Below are positions 17,015-31,796 of a stretch of DNA of 64,000 bases, piece by piece (the stretch's first letter is position 1; each line of letters begins with the position of its first letter). Both the position numbers and the translations under genes were made by a program. The DNA comes from an uncultured Planctomycetia bacterium (lineage in GTDB: Bacteria; 4484-113; JAGGVC01), in contig CAYMAI010000004.1 of NCBI GenBank assembly GCA_964388445.1, forward strand, positions 80,127 through 144,126. The letters are read 5' to 3'. The notes under the pieces were generated by a model. The model did not search any database. It saw nothing but the letters and a program-made list of their open reading frames with translations, and had not been told where the DNA came from.

Positions 17015-20000
17015 ATGCTGATTCGATTCGTATTGCGCAACCGCCTGTTGATGGGTGTAATGGGTTTGCTCGTATTCGCCGCCGGCTGGTACAGCTATGA
17101 AGAACTTCCCGTGGACGCCTTTCCGGACGTGACGCCCGCTCTGGTGCAAGTATTTACCGAAACCGAAGGGCTGGCGCCGGAAGAAGTTGAAAAATTCGTC
17201 ACCTATCCCGTTGAATCCGCGATGAACGGACTCCCGAACCTTAAAGAAATTCGTTCGACATCCAACTTCGGGCTATCGGTTGTCAACATCTATTTCGAGG
17301 ACGACACCGATATTTATTTTGCCCGCCAGCTTGTGGGAGAACGGCTTCAACTTGCTCGCGAGGAAATATTCGAAGGTTTCGGCGTGCCGGAAATGGGGCC
17401 GATTGCGACCGGTTTGGGACAGATTCTGTTTTTCGTGGTCGAAGACGAGTCGAAAACCCGGACGCCGGAAGAGCTGAGGGAAATTCAAGACTGGCTAATA
17501 AAGTACAACCTGCAAATCGTACCCGGCGTCACCGAGGTTTTATCGCTCGGCGGAGAGGTTAAGCAATTTCATATACTTGTCAGTCCGGCGAATTTGCTTC
17601 GCTACGGCATTACGATAAGCGATCTCAAAGAAAAAGTGCAAGCAAACAATTCGAATGCCGGCGCGCAATTCCTCGTAATCAATTCCGACGAATACATTGT
17701 GCGATCCGTCGGGTTGGCGGAAAAAATCGCCGACCTTGAAAACATAGTTCTAAAGGTGGAGGACGGAACGCCGGTTTATCTAAGCCAAGTCGCAGAAATT
17801 CGGGTTGGCGGCGAAATCCGGCGCGGACTAGCGACGATGAACGGCGCGGGAGAAGTTGTCGTAGGAATGGTGCTGAAGCTTATCGGAACAAACACATCCC
17901 AAGTAATAACCGACGTCAAGGCGAAACTTAAGGAAATCAACGGCGTTCTCCCCGAAGGCGTAAGCGTTGTTCCATATTACGACCAAGCGACTTTGGTTTC
18001 GAAGTGCATTAAGACGGTTTCCGACGCGTTAATCGGCGGCATATTGCTCGTTGCGGGAATCTTGCTGATTTTTATGGGCGGTTTTCGCGCTAGTCTTGTC
18101 GTTGCGCTTTCGATTCCGTTTTCGGTCATGTTCGCGTTCATCATGATGAAGGCGTTCGGCATAAGCGCAAATTTGATGTCGCTAGGCGGACTCGCGATCG
18201 CCATCGGAATGATGGTGGACGCGACAATCGTAATCGTCGAAAACGTTGACAGAATGATAAGGGAGGCAGAGCCGGGCGATTCAAAAATGTCTATCGTGGC
18301 GAGGGCATGCGCGGAAGTTGAAAGACCGATATTTTTTGCCATAGCGATTATCGTTCTCGTGTTCCTGCCGCTTTTCACGCTTCAAGGAGTCGAAGGAAAA
18401 ACGTTCAGGCCGCTGGCGCATACGGTCGCGCTGGCGATGATAGGGTCGCTCATTTATGCGCTTTTTCTTGCTCCGGTTTTGTCCCAGCTGTTCATGAACC
18501 GGCCGAAAAAACCGGCAAGCGGCAAGCAATCGAAGGAAGTTTGGATTGTGCGGCGGATGTTGATTTTGTATGAGCCGCTTGTACGCGTTTTTGTGCGTCG
18601 CCGGTTTCTGGCTATCGCTCTTTCGGGGCTGCTTTTAGGAGCGGGAGCGCTTGTGGTTCCGCGACTTGGTTCCGAATTCGTCCCGAGACTCGACGAAGGC
18701 GATCTGCTTATTCGCGTGACGATGTCGCCTTCCATATCGCTTGAGGAAGCGCGCGAGACCGTATTGCGTTTTGAAAAACGGCTTATGGCGGCTTTCCCGG
18801 AAGTTGTGCAGATTGTGTCGCGTGTCGGGCGCGGCGAAGTCGGAGCGCATGCAGACCCGGTCAACAACGCGGAATCGTTCGTCTCCTTAAGGCCTAAAAG
18901 CGAATGGAAGAACGCTGAAAATTCCGGAGAGTTATATGAGCAGATAAGCGAAACTTTCGAAACTTTTCCCGGCGCGCAGATCAATGTCACCCAGCCAATC
19001 GCTGCCGCTGTTGACGAACTTCTGACCGGAACGAAAGCGGAACTCGCCATCAAAATCTTCGGCCCCGATATGGACGTTCTGCAAGAACTTGCTGCAAAAG
19101 TGGAAAGCGAAATTGGCGGGCTTCGCGGGGCCTTTGACGTTCAGAAAGACCAAGTTGCAGGTACTCCGCAGCTATTGATTCGAATAGACCGAAAAGCGAT
19201 TGCGCGCTATGGCATCAACGTAGATGACATTCAAAGCATCGTCAGGACGGCGGTGGGCGGCGAAACCGCCGGGAAAATATTCGAGGGCGTAAGGCGGTTC
19301 GACATCGTCGTCCGGCTTGCCGAAAGCGCACGAAACAACGTCGAGAAAATACGCCATATATTAATCGCCGCGCCGGACGGCGCGCTCGTTCCGCTCGACC
19401 AGCTGGCATACATCGAGACAATCGTCGGGCCGAGACAGATTACGAGGGAAAACAATCAGCGCTTCATCGCCGTTCAATGCAACGTTCGCGGCCGGGACAT
19501 CGGAAGCTTTGTCGCGGAAGGCCAAAAAGCAATAGGCGACAAAATACAAATGCCAGCCGGTTATTTTGTCAATTGGGGCGGTCAGTTCGAATTGCAGCAG
19601 GAAGCAAACCGGCGGCTCGCCCTAGTCGTGCCTTTCACGCTTTTGATTATCACGCTGCTTTTGTTTATGAATTTCAATTCGCTCAAAAACACGATACTCA
19701 TACTATTCAATATTCCATTGGCGCTTGTCGGCGGCGTCGTTGCGCTGTTGATCACCGGTCAAAATCTTTCCGTTCCCGCTTCGGTCGGTTTTATAGCCTT
19801 GTTCGGCATAGCGCTAGAAAACGGAATGGTTCTCGTCACCTACTTGAATCAGTTGCTTCTAAGGGGAATTAACGTCGATGAAGCGTCGATCACCGGCGCG
19901 TGCCTTAGACTTAGACCGGTTTTGATGACTGCGGTGACCACCGCTTTGGGACTTATTCCGCTGCTGCTCAGCACTGGAACGGGAAGCGAAGTCCAGCGTC

Positions 20001-20110
20001 CGCTCGCTACCGTGGTTCTCGGCGGCCTCGTGACTTCGACTATACTGACGCTGCTCGTCATTCCGGCGTTATATAAATGGTTTGCAATACAGGTTAACAA
20101 GGAGGCTTGA
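17015..20110 (+). CDS. czcA: heavy-metal RND efflux pump, HME family (CzcA/CusA)
   Basis: 1031 aa with 12-TM RND topology. Motifs are typical of AcrB/CzcA-family transporters. Confidence 0.9.
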   Translation: MLIRFVLRNRLLMGVMGLLVFAAGWYSYEELPVDAFPDVTPALVQVFTETEGLAPEEVEKFVTYPVESAMNGLPNLKEIRSTSNFGLSVVNIYFEDDTDIYFARQLVGERLQLAREEIFEGFGVPEMGPIATGLGQILFFVVEDESKTRTPEELREIQDWLIKYNLQIVPGVTEVLSLGGEVKQFHILVSPANLLRYGITISDLKEKVQANNSNAGAQFLVINSDEYIVRSVGLAEKIADLENIVLKVEDGTPVYLSQVAEIRVGGEIRRGLATMNGAGEVVVGMVLKLIGTNTSQVITDVKAKLKEINGVLPEGVSVVPYYDQATLVSKCIKTVSDALIGGILLVAGILLIFMGGFRASLVVALSIPFSVMFAFIMMKAFGISANLMSLGGLAIAIGMMVDATIVIVENVDRMIREAEPGDSKMSIVARACAEVERPIFFAIAIIVLVFLPLFTLQGVEGKTFRPLAHTVALAMIGSLIYALFLAPVLSQLFMNRPKKPASGKQSKEVWIVRRMLILYEPLVRVFVRRRFLAIALSGLLLGAGALVVPRLGSEFVPRLDEGDLLIRVTMSPSISLEEARETVLRFEKRLMAAFPEVVQIVSRVGRGEVGAHADPVNNAESFVSLRPKSEWKNAENSGELYEQISETFETFPGAQINVTQPIAAAVDELLTGTKAELAIKIFGPDMDVLQELAAKVESEIGGLRGAFDVQKDQVAGTPQLLIRIDRKAIARYGINVDDIQSIVRTAVGGETAGKIFEGVRRFDIVVRLAESARNNVEKIRHILIAAPDGALVPLDQLAYIETIVGPRQITRENNQRFIAVQCNVRGRDIGSFVAEGQKAIGDKIQMPAGYFVNWGGQFELQQEANRRLALVVPFTLLIITLLLFMNFNSLKNTILILFNIPLALVGGVVALLITGQNLSVPASVGFIALFGIALENGMVLVTYLNQLLLRGINVDEASITGACLRLRPVLMTAVTTALGLIPLLLSTGTGSEVQRPLATVVLGGLVTSTILTLLVIPALYKWFAIQVNKEA

Positions 20111-20111
20111 G

Positions 20112-20438
20112 GTGAAGGAAATCAAAGCATACGTGGCGAAACGAAAACTTGGCGCCATTACGAGGGCTCTGCACAAAGTGGAAGGCATCACGGGAATGAG
20201 CGTAATCGACCATTTGGGATACGGCCGGGGATTGGCAGTCGCCGCGGAGCCCGAACTGGACTTTCATCACGGGATAAAGATTGAAATAATTTGCAAAGAC
20301 GAATTGGTCGACACAATCGTCTCCGCCATCGAAAAAGTCGCGCGCACCGGCCTTAAAAGCGACGGGAAAATATACGTTTCGCCGATAGAGCAGGCGATTA
20401 GAATCAGCACCGGCGAGCGCGGGGATGGCGCGATATGA
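20112..20438 (+). CDS. P-II (GlnB-like) family small signal-transduction protein associated with RND operon
   Basis: About 108 aa with a GTG start after AGGAGG. Its size and a GlnB-like pattern (EIKAYV...GITGMSV, GKIYVSPIEQAIRISTGE) fit the P-II family. Confidence 0.55.
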   Translation: MKEIKAYVAKRKLGAITRALHKVEGITGMSVIDHLGYGRGLAVAAEPELDFHHGIKIEIICKDELVDTIVSAIEKVARTGLKSDGKIYVSPIEQAIRISTGERGDGAI

Positions 20439-20580: not shown

Positions 20581-22281
20581 TCATGGCCTGGATTGGCCGA
20601 ACAGATATCCGATTAGTGCGGCGTCGCGTTCGTCGATGACGCCGTCGCGGTTTCCGTCAAGCGTCGGGAAGAGCGAGGCGGAATTGTTAAAGGAAGGCAT
20701 TACTGTACCGAACCAGAATGCGTAAAGCGCGTCGAGATCCGCAAGGTCGATTTTGTCGTCACCGTTGTAATCGCCGTCGAATACGCGCGTATAAAACGGC
20801 TGGGGCTCGCTTTCGAAAGATTCGTCGCGCCGGTGTGCGCGCACGGTCAGAAACTGCACGTTGTTCGTGAAGTCGTCAGGATTCAGCGTGAACTTGAAGC
20901 CGTTCGCGGGCGTGTCATCCGAGCGGTACACCGCGCCGTTAATCAGGAATTCGACGGATTCCACGTTCGAATTCGTGACGATTTCGATTTCGTAAAGCGA
21001 GCCTTTTTCATACGCCGAGCCGGCAAAGCCTTCCGGGAAATTGAAAAAGACTTCGGTGTCGTTGATATAGGTAATCACATTCGAGGGGTTGACGGAAACT
21101 ATGAGAACGTCGCCTTCAATCCAATCTTCCGTTATGGTCGCTTTCACTTCCGAGGGCGACCACGAGTCGGTTGCAACTTCGAGCGCTGACACGAGAAGCT
21201 GGCCGGATGTGCCGAAGTGTTTGCCAGTTATCGTAATTTGGTTGCCCGTAGAAGCGCGAATCGCCGACGGCGCGGTTATAAGCGGGTCGATTGCAATCGT
21301 CAAAGTGTTAAGCGCATTTCCGCCGATTGTGACGGTTATGATTGACGAGCTTTGAACGGCGTTTATCGGTGGGACGTTTACGGAAATCTGGGTGTCGGAC
21401 CACAAAACTACCTGCGCAGGCGATTCCTCGCCGCCGAACGAAATCGTGCTTGCGCCTTGCGTCGACCCAAGTTTCGAGCCGCTGATGACGAGCGATTCGC
21501 CTTCCGCCGCGTTCGTTTTGTCCGCGCCGGTCAAAAACGGATTGCTGACTTCAAACTCACCGTCCGTCGCAGCGATTGTGCCGTCTATGATGACGAAAAT
21601 CTGGCCCGTAATCGCAAAGTCCGGAACCGCGACGCTTATTTGGGTATTCGTCCAATTGAGGATTTCGGCGGGGATAGTATCGGGGCTTCCGGCAAAATGA
21701 ACTTCGTCTGTCGATTCGTCGAATGTGCCGAAAAACGTACCGGTTATCGTCACGGTGTCGCCGTATTCGCCGGACGACGGCGTGAAGAACGTGACATCCT
21801 GCTCTTGCACGGTATAGGAAAATTCGTTACTGAAAAAGCTCTCTTCGCCGGCGGTATCCACGACGGTTACGCGATAAAAGTATGTCTCGCCGACAATCGG
21901 ATGGCCGCCGGTGAACATCATATCGTCGAAAGTTATCGGGTCGCCGGGCTGTTGCGGAATTGCGATGCCGTCGTTCACGCGAATCGTCACGTCACCCTCG
22001 CGGCCGTCCGCGATGGGGCTTGTATCGCGGTAAAGAAAATATCCCGCGGCGGTGGGCTCGGCAACGCGCGTCCACGTCAGCCGGATGCCGACCGGAAGGC
22101 CAGACGTCGTGCGCCCGAATGGCATAAGTGCAGACAAAATTTTGGGGGGCGAAAGCGCGGCATTGCCGCGTGCGCCTTGTTCAAGCGCGTTCCCGCTTCG
22201 TCCGCCGCATGCGGAAACCGAGAGAACCACCGCCGCCGCAAGCGCCGCAAAAATCGAAAAAGAATAAAACTTCTTTAGCAT
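20581..22281 (-). CDS. FN3/IPT-domain surface lipoprotein with C-terminal type-I dockerin
   Basis: Lipobox (VSAC). The N-terminus is shared with the 22294 gene (GIRLTW...ETYFYRVT). The C-terminus carries DGDYNGDDKIDLADLDALYAFWFG...DGNRDGVIDERDAALIGYLFG, a duplicated dockerin segment. Confidence 0.7.
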   Translation of the reverse strand: MLKKFYSFSIFAALAAAVVLSVSACGGRSGNALEQGARGNAALSPPKILSALMPFGRTTSGLPVGIRLTWTRVAEPTAAGYFLYRDTSPIADGREGDVTIRVNDGIAIPQQPGDPITFDDMMFTGGHPIVGETYFYRVTVVDTAGEESFFSNEFSYTVQEQDVTFFTPSSGEYGDTVTITGTFFGTFDESTDEVHFAGSPDTIPAEILNWTNTQISVAVPDFAITGQIFVIIDGTIAATDGEFEVSNPFLTGADKTNAAEGESLVISGSKLGSTQGASTISFGGEESPAQVVLWSDTQISVNVPPINAVQSSSIITVTIGGNALNTLTIAIDPLITAPSAIRASTGNQITITGKHFGTSGQLLVSALEVATDSWSPSEVKATITEDWIEGDVLIVSVNPSNVITYINDTEVFFNFPEGFAGSAYEKGSLYEIEIVTNSNVESVEFLINGAVYRSDDTPANGFKFTLNPDDFTNNVQFLTVRAHRRDESFESEPQPFYTRVFDGDYNGDDKIDLADLDALYAFWFGTVMPSFNNSASLFPTLDGNRDGVIDERDAALIGYLFGQSRP

Positions 22282-22293
22282 TTTCTACCGCCG

Positions 22294-23919
22294 TTAAATC
22301 TGTCCGCCGCCCGTCAGGTTTGGCGGTGGAAGAACAATCGTAATCGAAGAACCGCTGCTGTCCACGCTCGCCACGCGAACGTACACGCTGCCGGTCTTTG
22401 CCGTGTCGGGGATTTCGATGGTTATCGAGGTTTGACTCCACGATACGTAATCGCCTGCTTGCACCTCGACATCGTCGCCGGTGTCGCCCGGAGTGCCGTT
22501 ATCAAACCAGACCGTGCTGGTGCCGCGTGCCGCGCCGAAGCCGTTGCCCGAAATCACGAGTTGGTCGAGTTTGGTCTTGCGCGCCGAATCGAGGCCGGAA
22601 ATTGACGGCTTGACGTTGAAGTTGAGCGTATTGCTTTCGAGCGTTTCTTCTGCGCTGTCGCCGCTGACGTTCGCCTTGACCGTAACTTTCACCGCGACCT
22701 GTCCGCTGATGCCGCTGGGCACCGTGGCTTGTATTTGCGTGTTGTTCCAACTTGAGACAGTCGCGGCCGCCGCGCCGAATTGAACTGAACTGGTGCCCTG
22801 AGACGCGCCGAACGTGTGTCCGTTAATCGTCACAGACGAGCCGATTTCGCCTTCGCTTACTGAGAGCGAAGTAATCTTCGGCAGCACGTCGAAGCTGGCT
22901 GTATTGCTCGTGTTGTTTCCGGTCGAAACGGTAATTGCGCCGTCGGTAGCGGCGCCGACCGGAACGTTGACTTCGATTTGTGTATTGGTCCAGCTTACGT
23001 AATCGCCGGACGCGGCTTCCTGCGTGCCGAAAAACACTTTGCCGTCCCCCGCCGAGCGGTCGGCTTCGAAGTGGTTTCCGCTTATCGTAATCGTGTCGCC
23101 GACGCGTCCTTGATTGGGGTCAACCGTGGCTATGGACGGGGCTACGACGGTGAAGTCGCCCGTCGATTCAATGATTTGCGCCGCTTCGAGCGTGACCCTC
23201 ACATGACCCGTTACCGCTCCGGTGGGAACGACGACGGAAATGTTGGCATCCGTCCACGAATTGATGTCGGCTTCAATCCATGTGCCGCCGGGTCCGCTGA
23301 ATTCGACTTTGTCGCCCGAATCCTGAGTGCCGAAGCCTTCGCCGAGAACCTCAATGGTATCGAGAATGCTCGCCGATCCCGGATTGAAGCCCGTTATGGA
23401 AGAACCTATGGTTATGGACAACTCGTTGCTTACGTCGGATTCGTCGTCCGTATCGTTGATGTTCGTTACGCGGTAAAAATAGGTTTCTCCCCAAGCGGGA
23501 GGTCCTTCGGCGGGCGGCGAGCCGCCGCCAAAATAGATGTCGTCCCAATCGACTTCGTCGCCGGAGCCGGGATTGGCTATGGAGCTTGCATTTACCTTCT
23601 TGTCCGCGTCGGCAAGCCCGTCGTCCATCGTCTCGACGTCGCGATAAACGTTATAGCCGCCGTCGGCCTCTGCTTGGCGGTCCCAAGTGAGTCTGATACC
23701 TTCCGGCATACCGCTCGCTCCACGGATTATTTCCGCCCGCAGATTCCCGCCGGCGTTCGGATAGGTGGAGCCTGTCGGAAGAAAATCGCCCGGAACAGGC
23801 ATTACGCGCTGGGCGGGTGGCTTGAGATCCTGACTTGATGCGCCGCCGCCGCCGCCGCAAGCGGCGATTAGGATCGCCAGCAAGGAAGCCAAAATAATAA
23901 ATACAATTCCTCTTGTCAT
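22294..23919 (-). CDS. FN3/IPT(TIG)-repeat surface lipoprotein
   Basis: ATG with AAGGGGGA RBS. Lipobox (IAAC). Repeated IPT-like modules (SISGNHF, TINGHTFG, VISGNGFG). C-terminal tail VLPPPNLTGGGQI. Confidence 0.7.
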   Translation of the reverse strand: MTRGIVFIILASLLAILIAACGGGGGASSQDLKPPAQRVMPVPGDFLPTGSTYPNAGGNLRAEIIRGASGMPEGIRLTWDRQAEADGGYNVYRDVETMDDGLADADKKVNASSIANPGSGDEVDWDDIYFGGGSPPAEGPPAWGETYFYRVTNINDTDDESDVSNELSITIGSSITGFNPGSASILDTIEVLGEGFGTQDSGDKVEFSGPGGTWIEADINSWTDANISVVVPTGAVTGHVRVTLEAAQIIESTGDFTVVAPSIATVDPNQGRVGDTITISGNHFEADRSAGDGKVFFGTQEAASGDYVSWTNTQIEVNVPVGAATDGAITVSTGNNTSNTASFDVLPKITSLSVSEGEIGSSVTINGHTFGASQGTSSVQFGAAAATVSSWNNTQIQATVPSGISGQVAVKVTVKANVSGDSAEETLESNTLNFNVKPSISGLDSARKTKLDQLVISGNGFGAARGTSTVWFDNGTPGDTGDDVEVQAGDYVSWSQTSITIEIPDTAKTGSVYVRVASVDSSGSSITIVLPPPNLTGGGQI

Positions 23920-23954: not shown

Positions 23955-26900
23955 TCAATCAATTTTCCCCGCGCCAGTAAGATTTGGCGGGGGAAGCACA
24001 ACAGTAAATGGACTTTTGTTCGATTCGGTAATCTTGAAAACCCATACGCCGTCCGAAGCATGGCTTTTCGCTCCCGCGGGCACGTCGCAAACGATTTCGT
24101 TGTTGGACCAAGAGGTGACGGTGGATTGCGTGACGTGACCACCCGATCCGTTGTTGAACCTTACTTCGCCCGACCCTTGAGAATCGCCGAAACCGCTGCC
24201 CGAAATGGTTATCGAAACGCCTACAATGCCGCGGTCCGGCGTTGCTCCCGACACGAACGGCCCTTCGTTTTCGACGCTGATATCGTCAATGAAAATTCCT
24301 ACGTCCGATCCCGATGAGCCTCTCGGGTAGAAAAGCACCCTGCCCGAGTGTCCGACGAAAGATGAAAGGGGATTTTCCGCGAGCGTCCAGTCGGCCTGGT
24401 CGATGTTCATCGTGTCGATTTTCGTGTAACCGAGCCAAGTAGTGTAAAAATAAACGTCGAAATAGCGGCTCGACGGGGTGCTCATTTTGTAGTAGTACCT
24501 GAGTATCGGCTCGATTATGTCCTCTCCGGACAAATCAATGGCGTGCCTTCCGCTTGCAGGCGCGATTCCGCGAAACCACGCGTAATCGTTCGGCGTACCT
24601 CCCCATGCGCCGGGCGCGATCCAGCCGAGACATTGCGTTCCGCTGCGCCCGTCGTCCGTAACCAGCTGCCATTGAGGTTGAATCCCGTCGTTTTCCAATA
24701 GCCACTGGTCGTCGATCCCGCTTTCGATGTCGTCGGAAGCGGGATAGTTGTTTTTGGAGTTTTTAAACGCTATCGTGATTTCGGCTTTTTCGCTGGCGAT
24801 GTCGTCGTCGTCGAGAGCGTAAGCCATAACCTTAATCGCAGGATGATTGTCGTCGTTCAGCGTATTGCGGGTATAGCGCCATGGCGCCGCGGTATCGGTG
24901 GAAACGAGCGAGCCGTTCACGTAGAAAAACACTTTTTGAACGCTGCCGTCGTCCGTCGCGTCGACGTCAAAATTCGTACTTCCCGAAACGTCCGCACCGT
25001 CCGCGGGATTCGTGAAAGTCACTTGAGGCGGGTCGCTCGGACATTCGCGGATAACGAAATCGTCGAGGTTCACGCTGGCTGCCGCATGTTCGTCTCCGCG
25101 AAATCTGCCGCCGTACTTAATGGCGAAATATACGCTTTCTCCTTGGAACGCATATGTGCCGCTAAACATTGCCCATGGAGTTGTACTGCCGGAAGTTGTG
25201 GACGGCAAGTATTCGAGCGTTTCCCAAGTGGCGCCCTCGTCCGTGGACGCAAGCAGCATAAGCGCATTCGGTATGCCTCTTTTGTCCCTCATACGATAGA
25301 AAAACTTTATCTGTACCGGCCTGGTAAAGCCCGTGGCGTCTATTCGCTGACTTCGGAGAATCTGATTCGCGGTGAAATTTTGGTTGGAAACCGGTGCCTT
25401 TACGTACGCTTCCTTGCCGCTGCCGAGCGGCGAGGGCGTGCCGGGACTCGTGCGGGTATCCCAAGAAGATTGCGAACCGGAGCCGAAATTTTCGACAAAG
25501 AATCGGATTTCATGGTTGTTGTCTATTTTGCGCCATTTGAAGAAACCACCGTCCTCCGCATCTTCGAAACCGTCAGTAACGGAAGCGGCTCCTGAATTAC
25601 TGACGGTTACGCTTACGACGTCCGTTCCCGCCTGACCTTCTTCGTCCCATGCGCGAGCGGCGATGTTCGAAGTCTTGTTGAAATCGACGAGCGAGTTCCA
25701 TGTGTATGTTTCCGTCGCGCCGGGCGTATCCCAACTCGCGACCATAACGCCGTCGATTAAAAGTTGCAGTTTCGTCACCGCGTTGTCGTCCGAGCAGTCA
25801 ATGCTGACCGTAACGCCGCCGCTCAACGTGCCTCCCGAAGGCTCGGTTATTTCCACCGACGGCGGATTGCTGGTGAACAAAATGAAGTCGGCGGTCATGG
25901 TATCGCCCGCCGCCGAAGTGTCCACGCAATTGATGCCCGGATTCGTGCCGTCGTAAAGGTTCGAATTCGGGGTCGAATCCGGCGTCAATTCGGCACCGTC
26001 CTTATAGAAATCGCCAGCATTCGCTTGCTGACCTTGCTCGATTTCTTCGAGGCCGTCGGCCTCCATCAAGCGAACCAGTTTGTGTTCCGTATAAGAATTG
26101 TCCCACACCAAATAGCCGTCGTTGTCCACTTCGGCGTCGATATGCCAAAGCAAAATGCCGCTTGTCGGATAAGTCGTATCGAGGCCTTGCTTTCGCCTGT
26201 TTTGAGCGATGAAGAACTCCTGCCATGGATTTACCGGGTCGAAACCAGGCATAAAAATCACTGCGTCGCCGTAATCGTTAGATTTTCGCAGCTCATGGTC
26301 TTCTAGATTAGTAAACGCTATTGTCGGCTCCAGCCAGCCGAGGACGAATTTATGAAAGCAATTATGGTCGCCCCAGTTTCCGTGCATCATATCTAGTCCG
26401 CCGACGCCGCCTCGCGGGCCGACGCTGTCGTTGTAATCGTATAGGTCGGGCAAGCCGACGCCGTGACCGGTTTCGTGAATAGTTACGAGCGGGTCCCATC
26501 GCGCGAGTGCGGGCGGAGATTGCGCGAAGCCGTAATATCTCTCCCACTGCCACGAATACGTTTGGAAAGTCACTCCGTCAACTTGCTTCGCTGCTAGTTG
26601 GCTGATTTGCGTCAAATATCCCCACCAAAAAGATGACCATGCGCCTACCGGGCCGGCCCAAATGACCAAGAAATAGTCCACGATGCCGTCGCCGTCGTTG
26701 TCGTATTGCGAAAAGTCTTCGCCGGCCGCGTCCGCCGCTTCTATCGCCTCGAATATCAGAAGTTCACGGCGCAAAGTATCGGATGGATAGCTGCTATTGT
26801 CGTTAGGATGATAATAGGCCCGCGGATTTCGCGCGGTGTACCATCCGTAAACCTGCCCTTCTATCTCCAGCTGTTGATATGACGCCTGCTTGTAATACCA

Positions 26901-27431
26901 AGAAAGACCTCGGTAATAATATGCGGTATCGCCTTCGCCGAAAATGTTCTTTTCGAACTCATCTTTGGCGAAATATGCCGGATAATCCGGAAAATCGATT
27001 ATAAGCGCGAAAGTTTTGCTTGAACCGATCGACGACATCGCCGCAGTATTTCTCGGAGACGGAAAGCCGAGAGAAAGAATGTCCCGTTCATCCACAACCC
27101 TGTCGTGATTGCGGTCGAAGTTCAGCCACGCGAATTCGCGGGATGGGGTCTTGCCTATCGAACTCGGACTCCTGTCCGCGAGCGAGCGTCCGTAGTGTTG
27201 CATTACGCCGTCAGCGAGAGCGTGCGGATTCGAATCACCGCCGCCGCCGCCGCGATTCGCTGCCTGCATTTTGTGGTTGCCGAGTTCTTCCGCTCTTTTC
27301 AAAGCTTCTTCGTAAGTGCCATCGGCTATCATCTCTTCGATCATACCCGGCGGTGGCGGCTGAAGCGCGTGCGCCGGAAGCGCGGTCATGGCGAAAAAAA
27401 TGGCGGCGAAAATGAAAATCGTACTTTTCAT
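23955..27431 (-). CDS. M6 family (immune inhibitor A-like) secreted zinc metalloprotease with C-terminal IPT domain
   Basis: Signal peptide. HETGHGVGLPDLYD zinc-binding motif as in InhA/M6 peptidases. C-terminus ends TVVLPPPNLTGAGKID. Confidence 0.8.
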   Translation of the reverse strand: MKSTIFIFAAIFFAMTALPAHALQPPPPGMIEEMIADGTYEEALKRAEELGNHKMQAANRGGGGGDSNPHALADGVMQHYGRSLADRSPSSIGKTPSREFAWLNFDRNHDRVVDERDILSLGFPSPRNTAAMSSIGSSKTFALIIDFPDYPAYFAKDEFEKNIFGEGDTAYYYRGLSWYYKQASYQQLEIEGQVYGWYTARNPRAYYHPNDNSSYPSDTLRRELLIFEAIEAADAAGEDFSQYDNDGDGIVDYFLVIWAGPVGAWSSFWWGYLTQISQLAAKQVDGVTFQTYSWQWERYYGFAQSPPALARWDPLVTIHETGHGVGLPDLYDYNDSVGPRGGVGGLDMMHGNWGDHNCFHKFVLGWLEPTIAFTNLEDHELRKSNDYGDAVIFMPGFDPVNPWQEFFIAQNRRKQGLDTTYPTSGILLWHIDAEVDNDGYLVWDNSYTEHKLVRLMEADGLEEIEQGQQANAGDFYKDGAELTPDSTPNSNLYDGTNPGINCVDTSAAGDTMTADFILFTSNPPSVEITEPSGGTLSGGVTVSIDCSDDNAVTKLQLLIDGVMVASWDTPGATETYTWNSLVDFNKTSNIAARAWDEEGQAGTDVVSVTVSNSGAASVTDGFEDAEDGGFFKWRKIDNNHEIRFFVENFGSGSQSSWDTRTSPGTPSPLGSGKEAYVKAPVSNQNFTANQILRSQRIDATGFTRPVQIKFFYRMRDKRGIPNALMLLASTDEGATWETLEYLPSTTSGSTTPWAMFSGTYAFQGESVYFAIKYGGRFRGDEHAAASVNLDDFVIRECPSDPPQVTFTNPADGADVSGSTNFDVDATDDGSVQKVFFYVNGSLVSTDTAAPWRYTRNTLNDDNHPAIKVMAYALDDDDIASEKAEITIAFKNSKNNYPASDDIESGIDDQWLLENDGIQPQWQLVTDDGRSGTQCLGWIAPGAWGGTPNDYAWFRGIAPASGRHAIDLSGEDIIEPILRYYYKMSTPSSRYFDVYFYTTWLGYTKIDTMNIDQADWTLAENPLSSFVGHSGRVLFYPRGSSGSDVGIFIDDISVENEGPFVSGATPDRGIVGVSITISGSGFGDSQGSGEVRFNNGSGGHVTQSTVTSWSNNEIVCDVPAGAKSHASDGVWVFKITESNKSPFTVVLPPPNLTGAGKID

Positions 27432-28006
27432 TGCGCCACCGTCCTGTGTTCGAGATCGAAAGAGAGCCGCTCGCGCTTGCCGTTTCGAAGGTGCAAAAAT
27501 TGGGCGTCGTTCAAAAGCCGAACGCGTGGAGCGCCAGCCGGGTCCGCGATAATCCTGAACATGACGCTGAGAATTTCGCCCTTTCCGGCGGGTATGCCGC
27601 GTCCGCCGTTCGTTTGGGTGAATGCGAACGGAACGAATTCCGGGTGGTCCAGCTTGGCGAAAAACACGGCGGAATCGGGAACGGCGCCGCGGGATGCGCG
27701 AACCGGCTGGACGAACCGCCGGTCGTACACAAGCCTGCCGCTCATTTGGTAAAGCTCTTCGGCTAGTTCGAATTTCAGTTGCACGTCGAACTCGTCGCCG
27801 GCGGACATCGCCGCAATATCGGGGGAAACGACGGTAAGCGTATTTCTGTCGGGGGCGGAGGTATCAATCGGCGTTTCGGGTTTCGATGCGGCGGGTTTGC
27901 CCGAAGGACCGCCGTGAAATGCGGACGGCTTGTTGCCCCTTCCGCAGGATATGGCCGCGACAGCCAGCACGGCGGCCGCCAGCACTGCAAACAATGCAAG
28001 CCTCAT
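27428..28006 (-). CDS. small lipoprotein with cohesin-like beta-sandwich domain, translationally coupled to the M6 protease
   Basis: Lipobox (AISC). Its stop overlaps the protease ATG (ATGA). Residues 50-160 resemble the N-terminal domain of the dockerin-lipoprotein paralogs (GDEFDVQLKF...LVYDRRFVQPV...GEILSVMFRI). The cohesin assignment is inferred. Confidence 0.5.
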   Translation of the reverse strand: MRLALFAVLAAAVLAVAAISCGRGNKPSAFHGGPSGKPAASKPETPIDTSAPDRNTLTVVSPDIAAMSAGDEFDVQLKFELAEELYQMSGRLVYDRRFVQPVRASRGAVPDSAVFFAKLDHPEFVPFAFTQTNGGRGIPAGKGEILSVMFRIIADPAGAPRVRLLNDAQFLHLRNGKRERLSFDLEHRTVAQ

Positions 28007-28136
28007 AACTCCTCCGCAATTACCATAAATGGGAAGCGCCCTAAAGAGCGTTTCCCGATTTTAAAATCCCAAAATATTACCTCATAAGGCGTAATCCGCA
28101 ACATAATTGCCGCGTTTTTGCCGATTCGCGGCGCTT

Positions 28137-31100
28137 TCAGTTAATCGGATTCACGCCCTTCAAAACGGGCGGAACAAGCGCCACACCGAAGTAATACCCG
28201 TTGGAATCGTATCCTTGAACATTTACGACCACGTTTCCGCTTACGGCGTCCGCGGGAACGACTACCTCGATGGCGTTGTCGCCCCAGACGTTCACGGCCG
28301 GCGATGTGCGCCCGCCGCCCTCTTTCGCGAACGTAATCGTGCTGGTTTCTTGAAGCGGGCCGAAATAGTTGCCGTTCACGGTGACGGTCTTGCCGGGCGC
28401 GCCTGACGGGTCAACGATGGATGTAATGCGCGCGCCGGCGATGAAAACTTCGTAGTCGTCTATGAACCAGCCCTTCCCGGCGCTTCCGTCCGAATTTGCG
28501 TCGAACTTGAACAGGATTCGGAACTCTCCGCCTTCCGCGAAAGTAAGGTCGAAATACTGCTCCGTCCAATCCGCGATGTCGCTGCGGTATTCGCCGATTA
28601 TCACTTCGGATTCGTCCAGGCCGTCGTACCTGACGAGTACGATGCGCGCCACGTCGCCCGTGCCGAGGTCGAGCTTTTGCGAAAGCCGCAAGAACGGATG
28701 TTCCGCGTCGCCGGGGTCGTGAAACGGACCGTACAGCCTGCCGGACGCGCCGTTACCGTAATCGCTATCGTCTTCGGGACCGAATTTCGCCGAAAAGTCG
28801 CCGTCCGCCGCGGATTCGCCGGTCACGCGCCACATGTCCGCGCCGCCGCCCCAAACGTACCAGTCGCCGTCGAGCGCGCCGCCGGACATTCCGCCGAGCT
28901 CGGCTATATCTTCGAACGAATCGTTCCACCGCGGGTCGCGCGATTCGATGACGGCGTTAAGCGCGACGTACGCCACCTGCATTAGCCCGTCTTCCGCGTC
29001 GCTGTCGAACGCCATAATCGTCAAGAGCGCGCCGCCGGAATAAACATAGCGGGAATCCCAGTCGAAGCTGAATTCCGTGTCCGCCGCCTGCGTGTCGTAC
29101 GCGAGATAACCGCCGAAATCGGGGGGTTGAGCGTAAACTCTAATGCGCTCCACGTTTTCGATTTCAAGCTCGATAGGCACCGCGCCGCTTACGCTTGCGC
29201 CGTTAGCGGGCGAAACGATTTGGATGGACGGCGGCGTGCCTTCCGCGCCGGTGACTTCTACGTCGTCGATCCACATTCCGGGGCCGGAGCCGCTGCTGGC
29301 AATCAGCACCCAATACGCCCTGATTTCACGCCCCGCCCAAGGCGAAAGCGATATGCTGAAATTGTCCCAATCTTGCAGCGTCGTCGAGGTGAAATCCCAA
29401 ATTGCGAGGTTGCGGTCGTCCGTGGTTATGCAGAAATATATCGCTCCGTTCGAACCCATCCGGTAGCGCCGGTCGAACGAAAGCGTTGCGCTCGCCTGAT
29501 TCGTCAAATCTATAACGGGCATGTAAAGCCAGTCGTTGCTGCGCGCCACGTAGTTCGCAGCCGCGCCGCTCGAATGAAGCGATGGCGATTCCGCGCCGAA
29601 TTGCGACGTGTCCGCTCCCCATTTGGTCGAGCCCGTGCCTTTGTTTCCGTCGAAGTGATACCAATCCGTTGGGATTTCGTTATCCGCGACGCCGGTGAAA
29701 TCTTCCTGCAAGGGTATCGCAGCGCGGGCGTTTTCCGGCGTGACGTTTATCGTCGAGCGGGTAATCCTGCCCTCGTCCGTTATTACAATCGCCCGAAGCC
29801 GCATTTCTCTGTTGAATTCGAACGTAGTATCCCAATCGAATTTATAAAATCCTTCGTCGAGAACGTCCGTCGCGCCGAGAAATCGGGTAGGCGTTTCGAA
29901 CTCGACTTTGACGACGTTTCCCGTGCCTCCGCTTATCGAAATGCGGATTTCGGTGTCGCCGGTTACGGTCGCGCCGTCCGCCGGATTGTCCCATTCTATT
30001 TCGTACGCGATTCCCGCGCCGGATTCGTACAGCTCCAGCGCTGCGTTTACGTCAACGAAACGCACCGTGCCGTTGCTGTCGTTGTCCCGAAAGCCGCGAG
30101 GGTTCACGCCGTTGTTCAGCTTTTCCATCGGGCGCGCCGAGCCCTGCAAAAGCTCGCGCACTTGAAGCGCGGTCGGAGTTTCGAACTGCGAAATGTACGC
30201 CCACAGCAGCGCGGCGCAGCCCGCGGTGTATGGCGTGGCAAAGCTCGTGCCCGCCACCGAAGCGACGTATGCGTTATCCGCGGTAATGTGTGTGGTTCTA
30301 ACTTCCACGCCCGGCGCGGCGATGTCGACCCAGTCGCCGTAATTGCTGAAGCCGGCGCGCGCGTCGTAGCGCGTGTCGATAGGCAGAGCGTCGTCCACGA
30401 GCGAAAAGTCCTGGTTGTTCGAATCGTTGACCAGCGTGGTTGCGCCGACCGCGACGCATTCCGGATAGTAGCCGGGATACAGCGGCGCGTCCGTATAGGA
30501 ATTGCCGGCGGCGATTAGAATCAGTTTGCCGTCCTCGTAACACTGCTTAACCGCAAGCTGAATCGTGCGCTCCGGGAACGGGCCGCCGAGCGAGAGGTTT
30601 TGGATGTGCGCGCCGAGGTAGTTGGCAAGCAGCATCCCTTCGGCGACGCCGCTGTAGGTGCCGGAGCCGCCCGAATTTAGCACTTTAATCGGCAGAATCG
30701 TAACCGTGTGGTTGATTCCCGCAAGCCCGAGCCCGTTGTTTCCCACCGCGCCGATGCAGCCCGCAACCATCGTGCCGTGATAATGGTCGTCCATCGGGTC
30801 GTTGTCTTTGTTGACGACGTCGGTAAGCACGCCCGGTTCGTTGTACGGCGGCGTGTCCGCCGGGACTATCATGTTCGCCGCAAGGTCTTGGTGCGTGTAC
30901 CTTACGCCGGTGTCAATGTCCGCGACGATTACGCTTGCGCTGCCCGTTGTTTTATCCCAGGCTTTGCCGTCCACCGCGCCGACGCGCCAGTTTGCCCACG
31001 TGCCGCCCTGCGTGCCGTTTTTGTTGAGGTGCATCGGGTCGTCCGGCGGCGCGCTGACCGTGCGATTCACTTCCTGCGCCGATTCGGGCTTCAGGAAACC

Positions 31101-31796
31101 GGGCAGAAACTTATGACCGGCGGGGCTGTCGCCGGGCTGCGCGGGTTCGCCAGCCGTTTCGTAATAGACGTAGCCGCCGATTGGCGCGAAAACCGAAACG
31201 TAAAAATCGTAGCCGACTTCCGCGACGAGGCCGCGGTTTTCCGTCAGCACTTTCATCATTATCGCGTCGAGCTTGGCGGCGTCGTCGATGTCCTTCGCCT
31301 TGTACGTGACAAAGTTGACGCCGCGGAAAAACACTCTGCGGTCGATTTCGAGCCCGTATTTCGCGGCGAGATTGACGCTTACCATTTTGAAGTACGGGTG
31401 ACTTACGAGCGGGCGATTGTCCTTTTCGAAAGCGGCGTTCGCGCCTTCGCCTTCGGCGTCGCCGCTTAGATATTCTGCAAGCGCCTGAGCGGACGGGGAG
31501 TTTTCGAAAATTACGTTGAATCTGTCCGCCGGAAAGTCAATGCCGGCGCGCGCCGCGAATTTGGGCATCGGGAGAGATTCGCGCGGGCCTGCCAAGTTCG
31601 ACGCGCCTTCGGCGAGAGCCGGAATGCCGGGAATTTCGATTCGCTCTTCCGCCGGGGGGATTTGGAACTTCGCTTCCGCGGGAGCCGCAGGCCCGGAGCG
31701 GGGCTTTTTCCCTCCGCATCCCGCTGCAAAGCATAAAAGCGCCGCAAGCGCGGCAAGCGAAAGCGAAGCGATGAAAAGCGCCTTACTCATACCCAT
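28137..31796 (-). CDS. S8 family subtilisin-like serine protease, large multidomain, C-terminal IPT domain
   Basis: Lipobox (AAGC). Catalytic triad motifs VADIDTG (Asp), HGTMVAG (His) and GTSFATPYTAG (Ser). About 500 aa of C-terminal beta-rich domains. Confidence 0.85.
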   Translation of the reverse strand: MGMSKALFIASLSLAALAALLCFAAGCGGKKPRSGPAAPAEAKFQIPPAEERIEIPGIPALAEGASNLAGPRESLPMPKFAARAGIDFPADRFNVIFENSPSAQALAEYLSGDAEGEGANAAFEKDNRPLVSHPYFKMVSVNLAAKYGLEIDRRVFFRGVNFVTYKAKDIDDAAKLDAIMMKVLTENRGLVAEVGYDFYVSVFAPIGGYVYYETAGEPAQPGDSPAGHKFLPGFLKPESAQEVNRTVSAPPDDPMHLNKNGTQGGTWANWRVGAVDGKAWDKTTGSASVIVADIDTGVRYTHQDLAANMIVPADTPPYNEPGVLTDVVNKDNDPMDDHYHGTMVAGCIGAVGNNGLGLAGINHTVTILPIKVLNSGGSGTYSGVAEGMLLANYLGAHIQNLSLGGPFPERTIQLAVKQCYEDGKLILIAAGNSYTDAPLYPGYYPECVAVGATTLVNDSNNQDFSLVDDALPIDTRYDARAGFSNYGDWVDIAAPGVEVRTTHITADNAYVASVAGTSFATPYTAGCAALLWAYISQFETPTALQVRELLQGSARPMEKLNNGVNPRGFRDNDSNGTVRFVDVNAALELYESGAGIAYEIEWDNPADGATVTGDTEIRISISGGTGNVVKVEFETPTRFLGATDVLDEGFYKFDWDTTFEFNREMRLRAIVITDEGRITRSTINVTPENARAAIPLQEDFTGVADNEIPTDWYHFDGNKGTGSTKWGADTSQFGAESPSLHSSGAAANYVARSNDWLYMPVIDLTNQASATLSFDRRYRMGSNGAIYFCITTDDRNLAIWDFTSTTLQDWDNFSISLSPWAGREIRAYWVLIASSGSGPGMWIDDVEVTGAEGTPPSIQIVSPANGASVSGAVPIELEIENVERIRVYAQPPDFGGYLAYDTQAADTEFSFDWDSRYVYSGGALLTIMAFDSDAEDGLMQVAYVALNAVIESRDPRWNDSFEDIAELGGMSGGALDGDWYVWGGGADMWRVTGESAADGDFSAKFGPEDDSDYGNGASGRLYGPFHDPGDAEHPFLRLSQKLDLGTGDVARIVLVRYDGLDESEVIIGEYRSDIADWTEQYFDLTFAEGGEFRILFKFDANSDGSAGKGWFIDDYEVFIAGARITSIVDPSGAPGKTVTVNGNYFGPLQETSTITFAKEGGGRTSPAVNVWGDNAIEVVVPADAVSGNVVVNVQGYDSNGYYFGVALVPPVLKGVNPIN

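Follow-up and report, generated by a model that had tools for sequence, protein, structure and literature searches.

A cohesin-domain lipoprotein and its overlapping M6 metalloprotease gene: a candidate protease anchor in an uncultured Planctomycetia bacterium

What might a small lipoprotein do when its gene runs directly into that of a large secreted protease? The question is raised by two genes in a 64,000-nucleotide stretch of DNA from an uncultured Planctomycetia bacterium (contig CAYMAI010000004.1, positions 80,127 to 144,126), referred to below as the window; coordinates are those of the window, and features lie on the minus strand unless stated otherwise. The first gene (27428..28006) encodes a lipoprotein of 192 amino acids (aa) and the second (23955..27431) a secreted M6 metalloprotease of 1158 aa. 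An initial annotation, made from the sequence alone, had put forward the lipoprotein as a membrane-anchored cohesin tethering dockerin proteins, or else as an inhibitor or chaperone of the protease. Cohesin-dockerin pairs are best known from cellulosomes and their roles elsewhere are largely conjecture. The analysis reported here favours, with moderate confidence, a lipoprotein anchor that docks the co-translated protease, most likely via a dockerin-like repeat near the N-terminus of the enzyme. That the cohesin contacts this particular repeat is held more tentatively, at somewhat short of an even chance.

The lipoprotein gene is an open reading frame (ORF) with conserved homologues, ending in a stop codon at 27428-27430. 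The sequence GGAGGA (28010..28015; tcctcc on the plus strand), 3 nucleotides 5' of its ATG, is Shine-Dalgarno-like by consensus resemblance only. A word-indexed search returned 12 homologues (40-100% identity), 4 of them with a precomputed match to PF00963. An exhaustive profile search, made against a library of 1.84 billion representative proteins, found 34 representatives at E ≤ 1e-30, showing that the gene is real and conserved.

The family alignment and a structural model place a lipoprotein signal peptide at residues 1-21 (27944..28006), where the hydrophobic stretch MRLALFAVLAAAVLAVAAIS precedes Cys21 of the lipobox AISC. This cysteine is kept in all 46 family members, most of which have a lipobox-like tetrapeptide, and AlphaFold2 predicts a helix at residues 2-19. 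A Pro/Ser/Gly-rich segment follows (residues 22-52, 27851..27943); it varies in length and sequence across the family, and over residues 22-46 its predicted local distance difference test (pLDDT) score is below 50, indicating disorder. The remainder of the protein (residues 53-192, 27431..27850) is a single cohesin domain. As modelled, therefore, the lipoprotein consists of a lipid anchor, a flexible tether of about 30 residues and one cohesin domain.

The assignment of this domain to the cohesins was first proposed in the initial annotation and is supported by its predicted fold. The AlphaFold2 model, computed from the family alignment, is a confident one: its mean pLDDT is 83 overall and the domain scores above 90, with block means of 88-97 over residues 51-190. 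It shows nine strands (residues 55-190) and no helices in the domain, which is a nine-stranded beta-sandwich (jelly-roll). A Foldseek search of the PDB gave 73 matches at E ≤ 0.001, and the best 50 of these 73 were all cohesins with a probability of 1.00. The top match was 2xdh, a non-cellulosomal cohesin from Archaeoglobus fulgidus (3.5e-8), followed by the dockerin-complexed cohesins 6kgc, 2y3n, 4uyq, 2vn5 and 4dh2, with template modelling (TM) scores of 0.6-0.75 normalised to the target.

Profile searches pointed in the same direction. When 12 family members were scanned singly, PF00963 was matched by 9 of them (best 1e-6), and the family profile retrieved three PDB sequences at E ≤ 10, all of them cohesins (1g1k, 2vn5 and 4uyp; E = 0.023-0.86). 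The exhaustive profile search gave 247 matches at E ≤ 0.001. The top 34, already mentioned, are small proteins, mostly of 185-215 aa; below them come large multi-domain proteins matched over several stretches at 1e-14 to 1e-10. Pfam Cohesin was found above its cut-off, at up to 688 bits, in 9 of the 10 large relatives tested, and several of these large relatives also bear Dockerin_1 or type IX secretion tails. The nearest multi-domain relatives (P0188, P0192, P0196, P0199 and P0205) combine cohesin repeats with Dockerin_1 and C-terminal Por_Secre_tail/CHU_C sorting domains, and look like Bacteroidota-type scaffoldin-like proteins outside a cellulolytic context. With the 192-aa protein itself, an NCBIfam scan gave noise only. 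The phmmer matches of this protein in the PDB were designed helical repeats, found via the signal peptide and low-complexity sequence, and were disregarded.

Ten residues are conserved in all 46 family members: G70, Q87, R91, G107, P126, T130, F150, L171, L173 and R174. Seven of them fall on three predicted strands, namely Q87 and R91 on strand 3, P126 and T130 on strand 6, and L171, L173 and R174 on strand 8. The docking face of type I cohesin-dockerin complexes is formed by strands 8-3-6-5, and by strand order these invariant residues lie on that sheet. Fold, profile and lipobox evidence together support the description of the small protein as a membrane-anchored cohesin.

The second line of evidence is the arrangement of the two genes. 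The TGA of the cohesin gene (27428-27430) overlaps the ATG of the M6 gene (27429-27431); the tcat of the plus strand at 27428..27431 is ATGA on the minus strand. The ORF, the lipobox Cys21 and the sequence of the junction all confirm the earlier description of a 192-aa lipoprotein whose stop overlaps the start of the M6 gene. The junction was read base by base in seven loci, and was ATGA in six of them and GTGA in one. The same overlap is present by coordinates in L011-L013; in L014 the overlap is 11 nucleotides long, and in L017 a TAG is followed directly by the ATG. The overlap is not due to chance.

In all 12 loci examined, the gene directly upstream of M6 belongs to the cohesin family, usually with the 4-nucleotide overlap and down to an M6 identity of 36%. 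The pair is present in L002, L003 and L004 and in three metagenome-assembled genomes labelled Planctomycetales (L008-L010). The closest relative, L001 (74% identity), keeps the order S8 protease, cohesin, M6, TIG lipoprotein and TIG-dockerin lipoprotein, and farther loci keep part of it. In L012 (1-7423) there are tandem M6 paralogues with a cohesin-like gene between them, then a TIG protein and then a TIG-dockerin protein.

The pair was also approached in reverse, from the protease. An M6 search gave about 45 full-length orthologues of 1105-1285 aa. Beside each of five distant ones (P0027, P0035, P0039, P0053 and P0059; 36-49% identity) a small gene abuts or overlaps the M6 start, and the encoded small proteins match the hidden Markov model (HMM) of the cohesin family at 1e-34 to 1e-69. 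From the same search, two short M6 proteins, 676 and 687 aa long and lacking the N-terminal motif described below, served as negative controls, and neither has a cohesin-family neighbour. A scan of the operon for promoters and terminators gave counts similar to those in shuffled sequence, and these were set aside. The cohesin gene leads a conserved cassette of two translationally coupled genes and is followed in it by the gene for a large Sec-secreted M6 metalloprotease.

The sequence of the protease was then considered. It comprises a signal peptide, an N-terminal region, the M6 catalytic domain, two Big_7 domains, a choice-of-anchor J domain and a C-terminal TIG domain with a PPPNLTGAGKID tail. 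The initial annotation had called it an InhA-like M6 protease, and this is upheld by matches above cut-off to TIGR03296 (144.6 bits, cut-off 110.8) and PF05547 (29.9, cut-off 22), together with an HExxH zinc site, HETGH, at residue 319. A phmmer search of the PDB with residues 1-480 gave no matches.

The match to TIGR03296 starts at residue 143, and the approximately 120 residues that precede it (residues 23-142, 27006..27365) form an orthologue-conserved region common to all members of the subfamily. One segment of this region is nearly invariant and reads W-L-x-x-D-x-N-x-D-R-x-V-D-E-R-D-x-L-x-L-G-x-P (residues 102-124 in the window protein). This motif occurs in essentially all of the approximately 45 subfamily members and is absent from shorter (660-aa), more distant M6 relatives.

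This segment has the features of a single dockerin-type calcium loop and helix (LNFDRNHDRVVDERDILSLGF, residues 103-123, 27063..27125), as judged by conservation, hhalign, Pfam and a PDB profile search. The loop D106-R-N-H-D-R-V-V-D-E-R-D117 is followed by ILSLG, and D106, N108, D110, D114 and D117, all invariant, correspond to positions 1, 3, 5, 9 and 12 of the dockerin loop consensus DxNxDGxIDxxD. Against an alignment of canonical dockerins from the same lineage, which included the C-termini of twelve M6 orthologues and a 566-aa protein of the operon (see below), hhalign aligned the M6 motif to the second dockerin repeat with a probability of 90.5% and E = 1.4e-6 over 19 columns. Dockerin_1 was the Pfam family matched by most M6 members (9 of 29, best 0.0037, always below the cut-off), and the best PDB profile match of the M6 N-terminus was a dockerin from Clostridium acetobutylicum (6kg9, E = 0.04). 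An AlphaFold2 model of residues 23-150 is helical, with a helix-loop-helix at 97-120 in which a loop and then a helix occupy 106-120. With this model Foldseek gave only two matches at E ≤ 10, both X-dockerin chains and neither significant. In the segment upstream of the motif, GDSNPHALADGVMQHYG, loop positions 5 and 12 are without their acidic ligands. As only one repeat is detectable, the element is termed dockerin-like here and not a dockerin.

The predicted start of the mature protease, immediately after an AHA|LQ signal-peptidase site, is also well conserved: residues 23-34 (27330-27365) have the near-invariant sequence (A/M)(L/M)(E/Q)PPxPGM(I/L)ExM. The N-terminus of the pro-peptide of Bacillus InhA blocks the catalytic zinc, and by analogy this segment might have a similar latency role.

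Taken together, these results suggest the following mechanism. Both proteins would be exported, the cohesin being fixed to a membrane by its lipid, and the canonical 8-3-6-5 face of the cohesin would capture the protease. The part of the enzyme most probably contacted is its single, nearly invariant calcium loop and helix of dockerin type, DRNHDRVVDERDILSLG (residues 106-122), within the subfamily-specific N-terminal region. The protease, or its pro-form, would in this way be held at the cell envelope in a stoichiometry of about 1:1. We infer the physical binding of the two proteins, the element bound and the cellular location, which could be the cell surface or the periplasmic side of one or other membrane. 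A more elaborate version is possible but less likely than not: in such a minimal system the lipoprotein cohesin would recognise one F-hand repeat in an M6 pro-region and so keep the zymogen at the membrane until cleavage of the pro-region frees or relocates it.

Several points weigh against docking of the protease through its N-terminal repeat. On the cohesin side, the 192-aa protein of the window has no Pfam match of its own at E ≤ 1; because it lacks such a match while the family profile reaches cohesins, its homology to cohesins is supported at the profile level and not for the single sequence. The placing of the invariant residues on the 8-3-6-5 sheet used a secondary-structure string and not coordinates. 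On the protease side, a dockerin has two tandem F-hand repeats, each of about 22 residues, and only one aligns within M6 residues 60-125. The model of the N-terminal region is of moderate quality (pLDDT 71, predicted TM score 0.42), and taken singly the database matches of the element are marginal (E = 0.0037, 0.04 and 3.4). A single calcium loop could simply stabilise the pro-region. Lastly, canonical dockerins, any of which might be the true ligand, are found near the cassette in about 5 of the 12 loci, and about 11 further M6 orthologues end in a canonical dockerin instead of the TIG domain and tail.

These canonical dockerins are the basis of the alternative that survives best, although it is considered unlikely. 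It holds that the cohesin is a general anchor for canonical two-repeat dockerins, and that the N-terminal loop of the M6 protein is an unrelated structural calcium site. To our knowledge, the experimentally defined ligands of cohesins are all two-repeat dockerins, and one of this kind is encoded two genes downstream in the window. It forms the C-terminus (residues 499-566, 20584..20787) of a 566-aa TIG lipoprotein (gene 20581..22281); both repeats are visible, and it is matched by Pfam Dockerin_1 (E = 1e-4, 22.8 bits, cut-off 22.9) and by an in-house dockerin HMM (4.4e-22). The 64-kb window contains exactly one cohesin and one canonical dockerin in addition to the M6 half-dockerin. Counterparts of the 566-aa protein with a canonical dockerin occur in L001, again two genes downstream, and near the cassette in L012; L017 has one in a 455-aa TIG protein nearby, and in L013 canonical dockerins are found at the M6 C-terminus and in a PKD protein.

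Set against this, no canonical dockerin is present in the sequenced flanks of L004, L008, L011 and L014, whereas the junction of the cohesin and M6 genes is kept in all 12 loci. Moreover, a general anchor leaves the overlap with the M6 gene unexplained wherever the orthologue has no C-terminal dockerin, as is the case in the window. It is thus the M6 gene, with its N-terminal repeat, that is the constant companion of the cohesin; the canonical dockerin is frequent but dispensable. The initial annotation had cast the 566-aa protein as the tethered partner. That protein is no longer the best-supported candidate: the likely partner shifts to the M6 protease because a canonical dockerin is found in about 5 of the 12 loci and an M6 protein with its own repeat in 12 of 12. 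The two explanations are compatible, and the cohesin may additionally bind the canonical dockerin of the 566-aa protein, whose gene belongs to the same operon.

The initial annotation had also described the core of the 192-aa lipoprotein as aligning with the N-terminal domain of paralogous, dockerin-bearing lipoproteins. This was not supported for the two neighbouring lipoproteins. The best BLASTP E values were 0.12 for the 566-aa and 1.5 for the 554-aa protein, the family HMM gave 5.6 and 8.8 bits respectively (E = 0.23 and 0.023 among 410 ORFs), and the dockerin is present in the 566-aa protein only.

A less probable alternative makes the lipoprotein a cognate partner that inhibits the M6 enzyme, keeps it latent or helps it to fold; as a beta-sandwich it would bind the active site or the pro-region. 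The cohesin gene is strictly paired with a single protease gene and coupled to it in translation, as is typical of stoichiometric partners, and the arrangement would resemble the inhibitor genes that adjoin other bacterial metalloprotease genes. The dockerin-like element also precedes the catalytic domain and so might belong to a pro-peptide. However, no inhibitor or chaperone family was matched in Pfam or NCBIfam at E ≤ 1, there was no inhibitor among the best 50 of the 73 structural neighbours, and the conserved residues lie, by strand order, on the docking sheet of canonical cohesins. A lipid anchor and a long tether also suit display more than inhibition. It should be added that a cohesin holding a pro-enzyme would blur the distinction between a tether and a latency factor.

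Very improbable is a cohesin-fold domain with a non-docking use, e.g. glycan or cell-wall binding, that simply happens to be expressed together with envelope hydrolases: beta-sandwiches serve many different functions and the window protein falls under the Pfam cohesin threshold, but the family is tied to bona fide cohesins at profile level, shows conservation of polar residues in strands 3, 6 and 8, and is paired in 12 of 12 loci with a protein bearing a dockerin-type loop.

The remaining proteins of the operon share some features with the M6 protease. Directly downstream of it is a TIG-repeat lipoprotein (22294..23919), annotated as a 554-aa ORF, with a PPPNLTGGGQI tail as in M6; in the window, L001, L004, L008 and L011 the gene after M6 encodes a TIG protein of about 500 aa. 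The mechanical 554-aa ORF starts at a TTG at 23958 and would overlap the M6 stop (TTGA). A start at the ATG at 23919, which has a Shine-Dalgarno-like GGGGGA 5' of it, yields an ordinary lipoprotein signal, MTRGIVFIILASLLAILIAAC, and agrees with the 539-aa orthologue of L001. The true start is probably this ATG and not the TTG and, because it fits the 539-aa orthologue better, no coupling between the M6 and TIG genes is claimed.

Upstream of the cohesin gene is an S8 subtilase lipoprotein gene (28137..31796). It is placed outside the conserved core because only the window and the closest relative have it in this orientation; the genes upstream of the cohesin gene differ in L002, L004, L011, L013 and L014. 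A TIG domain with a similar tail ends three of the operon proteins: M6 (23955-24010, FTVVLPPPNLTGAGKID), the 554-aa protein (22294-22340, SITIVLPPPNLTGGGQI) and the S8 protein (28137-28180, ALVPPVLKGVNPIN). The tail is conserved among M6 orthologues with the consensus VxLxxPxLxGxxQx, and a choice-of-anchor J domain is present in both the M6 and the S8 proteins. The replacement of the tail by a canonical dockerin in some M6 orthologues suggests that the two are alternative anchoring or sorting devices. Past the end of the protease operon, on the plus strand (17015-20438), there is a gene for a resistance-nodulation-division (RND)-type efflux transporter (1031 aa, labelled by eye), and then a small overlapping ORF of 118 aa.

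The cassette offers a small test case, as it consists of two genes whose relevant parts, a cohesin of 140 residues and a protease N-terminal region of about 120 residues, could be expressed and assayed directly. If the two bind, they would reveal how proteases come to be presented on the envelope of uncultured diderm bacteria. If the single repeat suffices for binding, the recognition rules of cohesins would be extended and a very compact affinity pair would be available; if only the canonical dockerin is bound, the protein would be an ordinary non-cellulosomal cohesin.

How does this pair compare with known systems? The best structural match, the A. fulgidus cohesin 2xdh, and other non-cellulosomal cohesins are similar in that a non-cellulolytic organism has a single cohesin module and the operon encodes no carbohydrate-active enzyme. 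Here, in contrast, the cohesin is a stand-alone lipoprotein in a fixed, overlapping pair with one protease family, and its candidate ligand is a single N-terminal repeat and not a C-terminal two-repeat dockerin. A survey by Peer et al. in 2009 reportedly found cohesin and dockerin modules to be widespread outside cellulosomes. In a literature search, no account was found of a separate cohesin lipoprotein that is coupled with an M6 enzyme.

The anchoring scaffoldins of cellulosomes (type I/II cohesins of OlpC and SdbA of C. thermocellum and CohA2 of C. acetobutylicum; 4dh2, 2bm3 and 6kgc) match the lipoprotein in fold, with TM scores of 0.65-0.75 normalised to the target. They are cohesins tethered to the envelope, where they capture dockerin-bearing enzymes, as is proposed for the lipoprotein. 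They differ in that they are attached by SLH domains or sortase instead of a lipidated cysteine, and identity with them is 9-18%. The cargo in the present case would be a metalloprotease and not a glycoside hydrolase, and there is one cohesin with no scaffoldin repeats.

Also comparable are two models from non-cellulolytic diderms, in both of which cohesin-dockerin modules are proposed to assemble zinc peptidases at the envelope. The 'planctosome' hypothesis proposes cohesin-dockerin peptidase assemblies, as yet untested, in Planctomycetes (Andrei et al. 2019, ISME J, PMC6461901), and cellulosome-like peptidase complexes, likewise untested, have been inferred in Cloacimonadota (PMC8542988). 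Those models involve giant multi-domain anchor or adaptor proteins, peptidases of families M12B/M14 or S8/C25, and C-terminal dockerins, whereas the present system is a minimal two-gene cassette of an M6 enzyme and a lipoprotein, known from sequence.

The enzyme itself resembles immune inhibitor A of Bacillus (InhA, MEROPS M6) in its M6 catalytic domain and HExxH motif. We know of no Bacillus M6 enzyme with a cohesin partner gene or a dockerin-like N-terminal repeat. The principle of the interaction is already known from cohesins and dockerins; docking through an N-terminal half-dockerin linked to a zymogen, a mode undescribed for any cohesin, would be new if confirmed, and would be conserved across an uncultured, Planctomycetales-labelled lineage.

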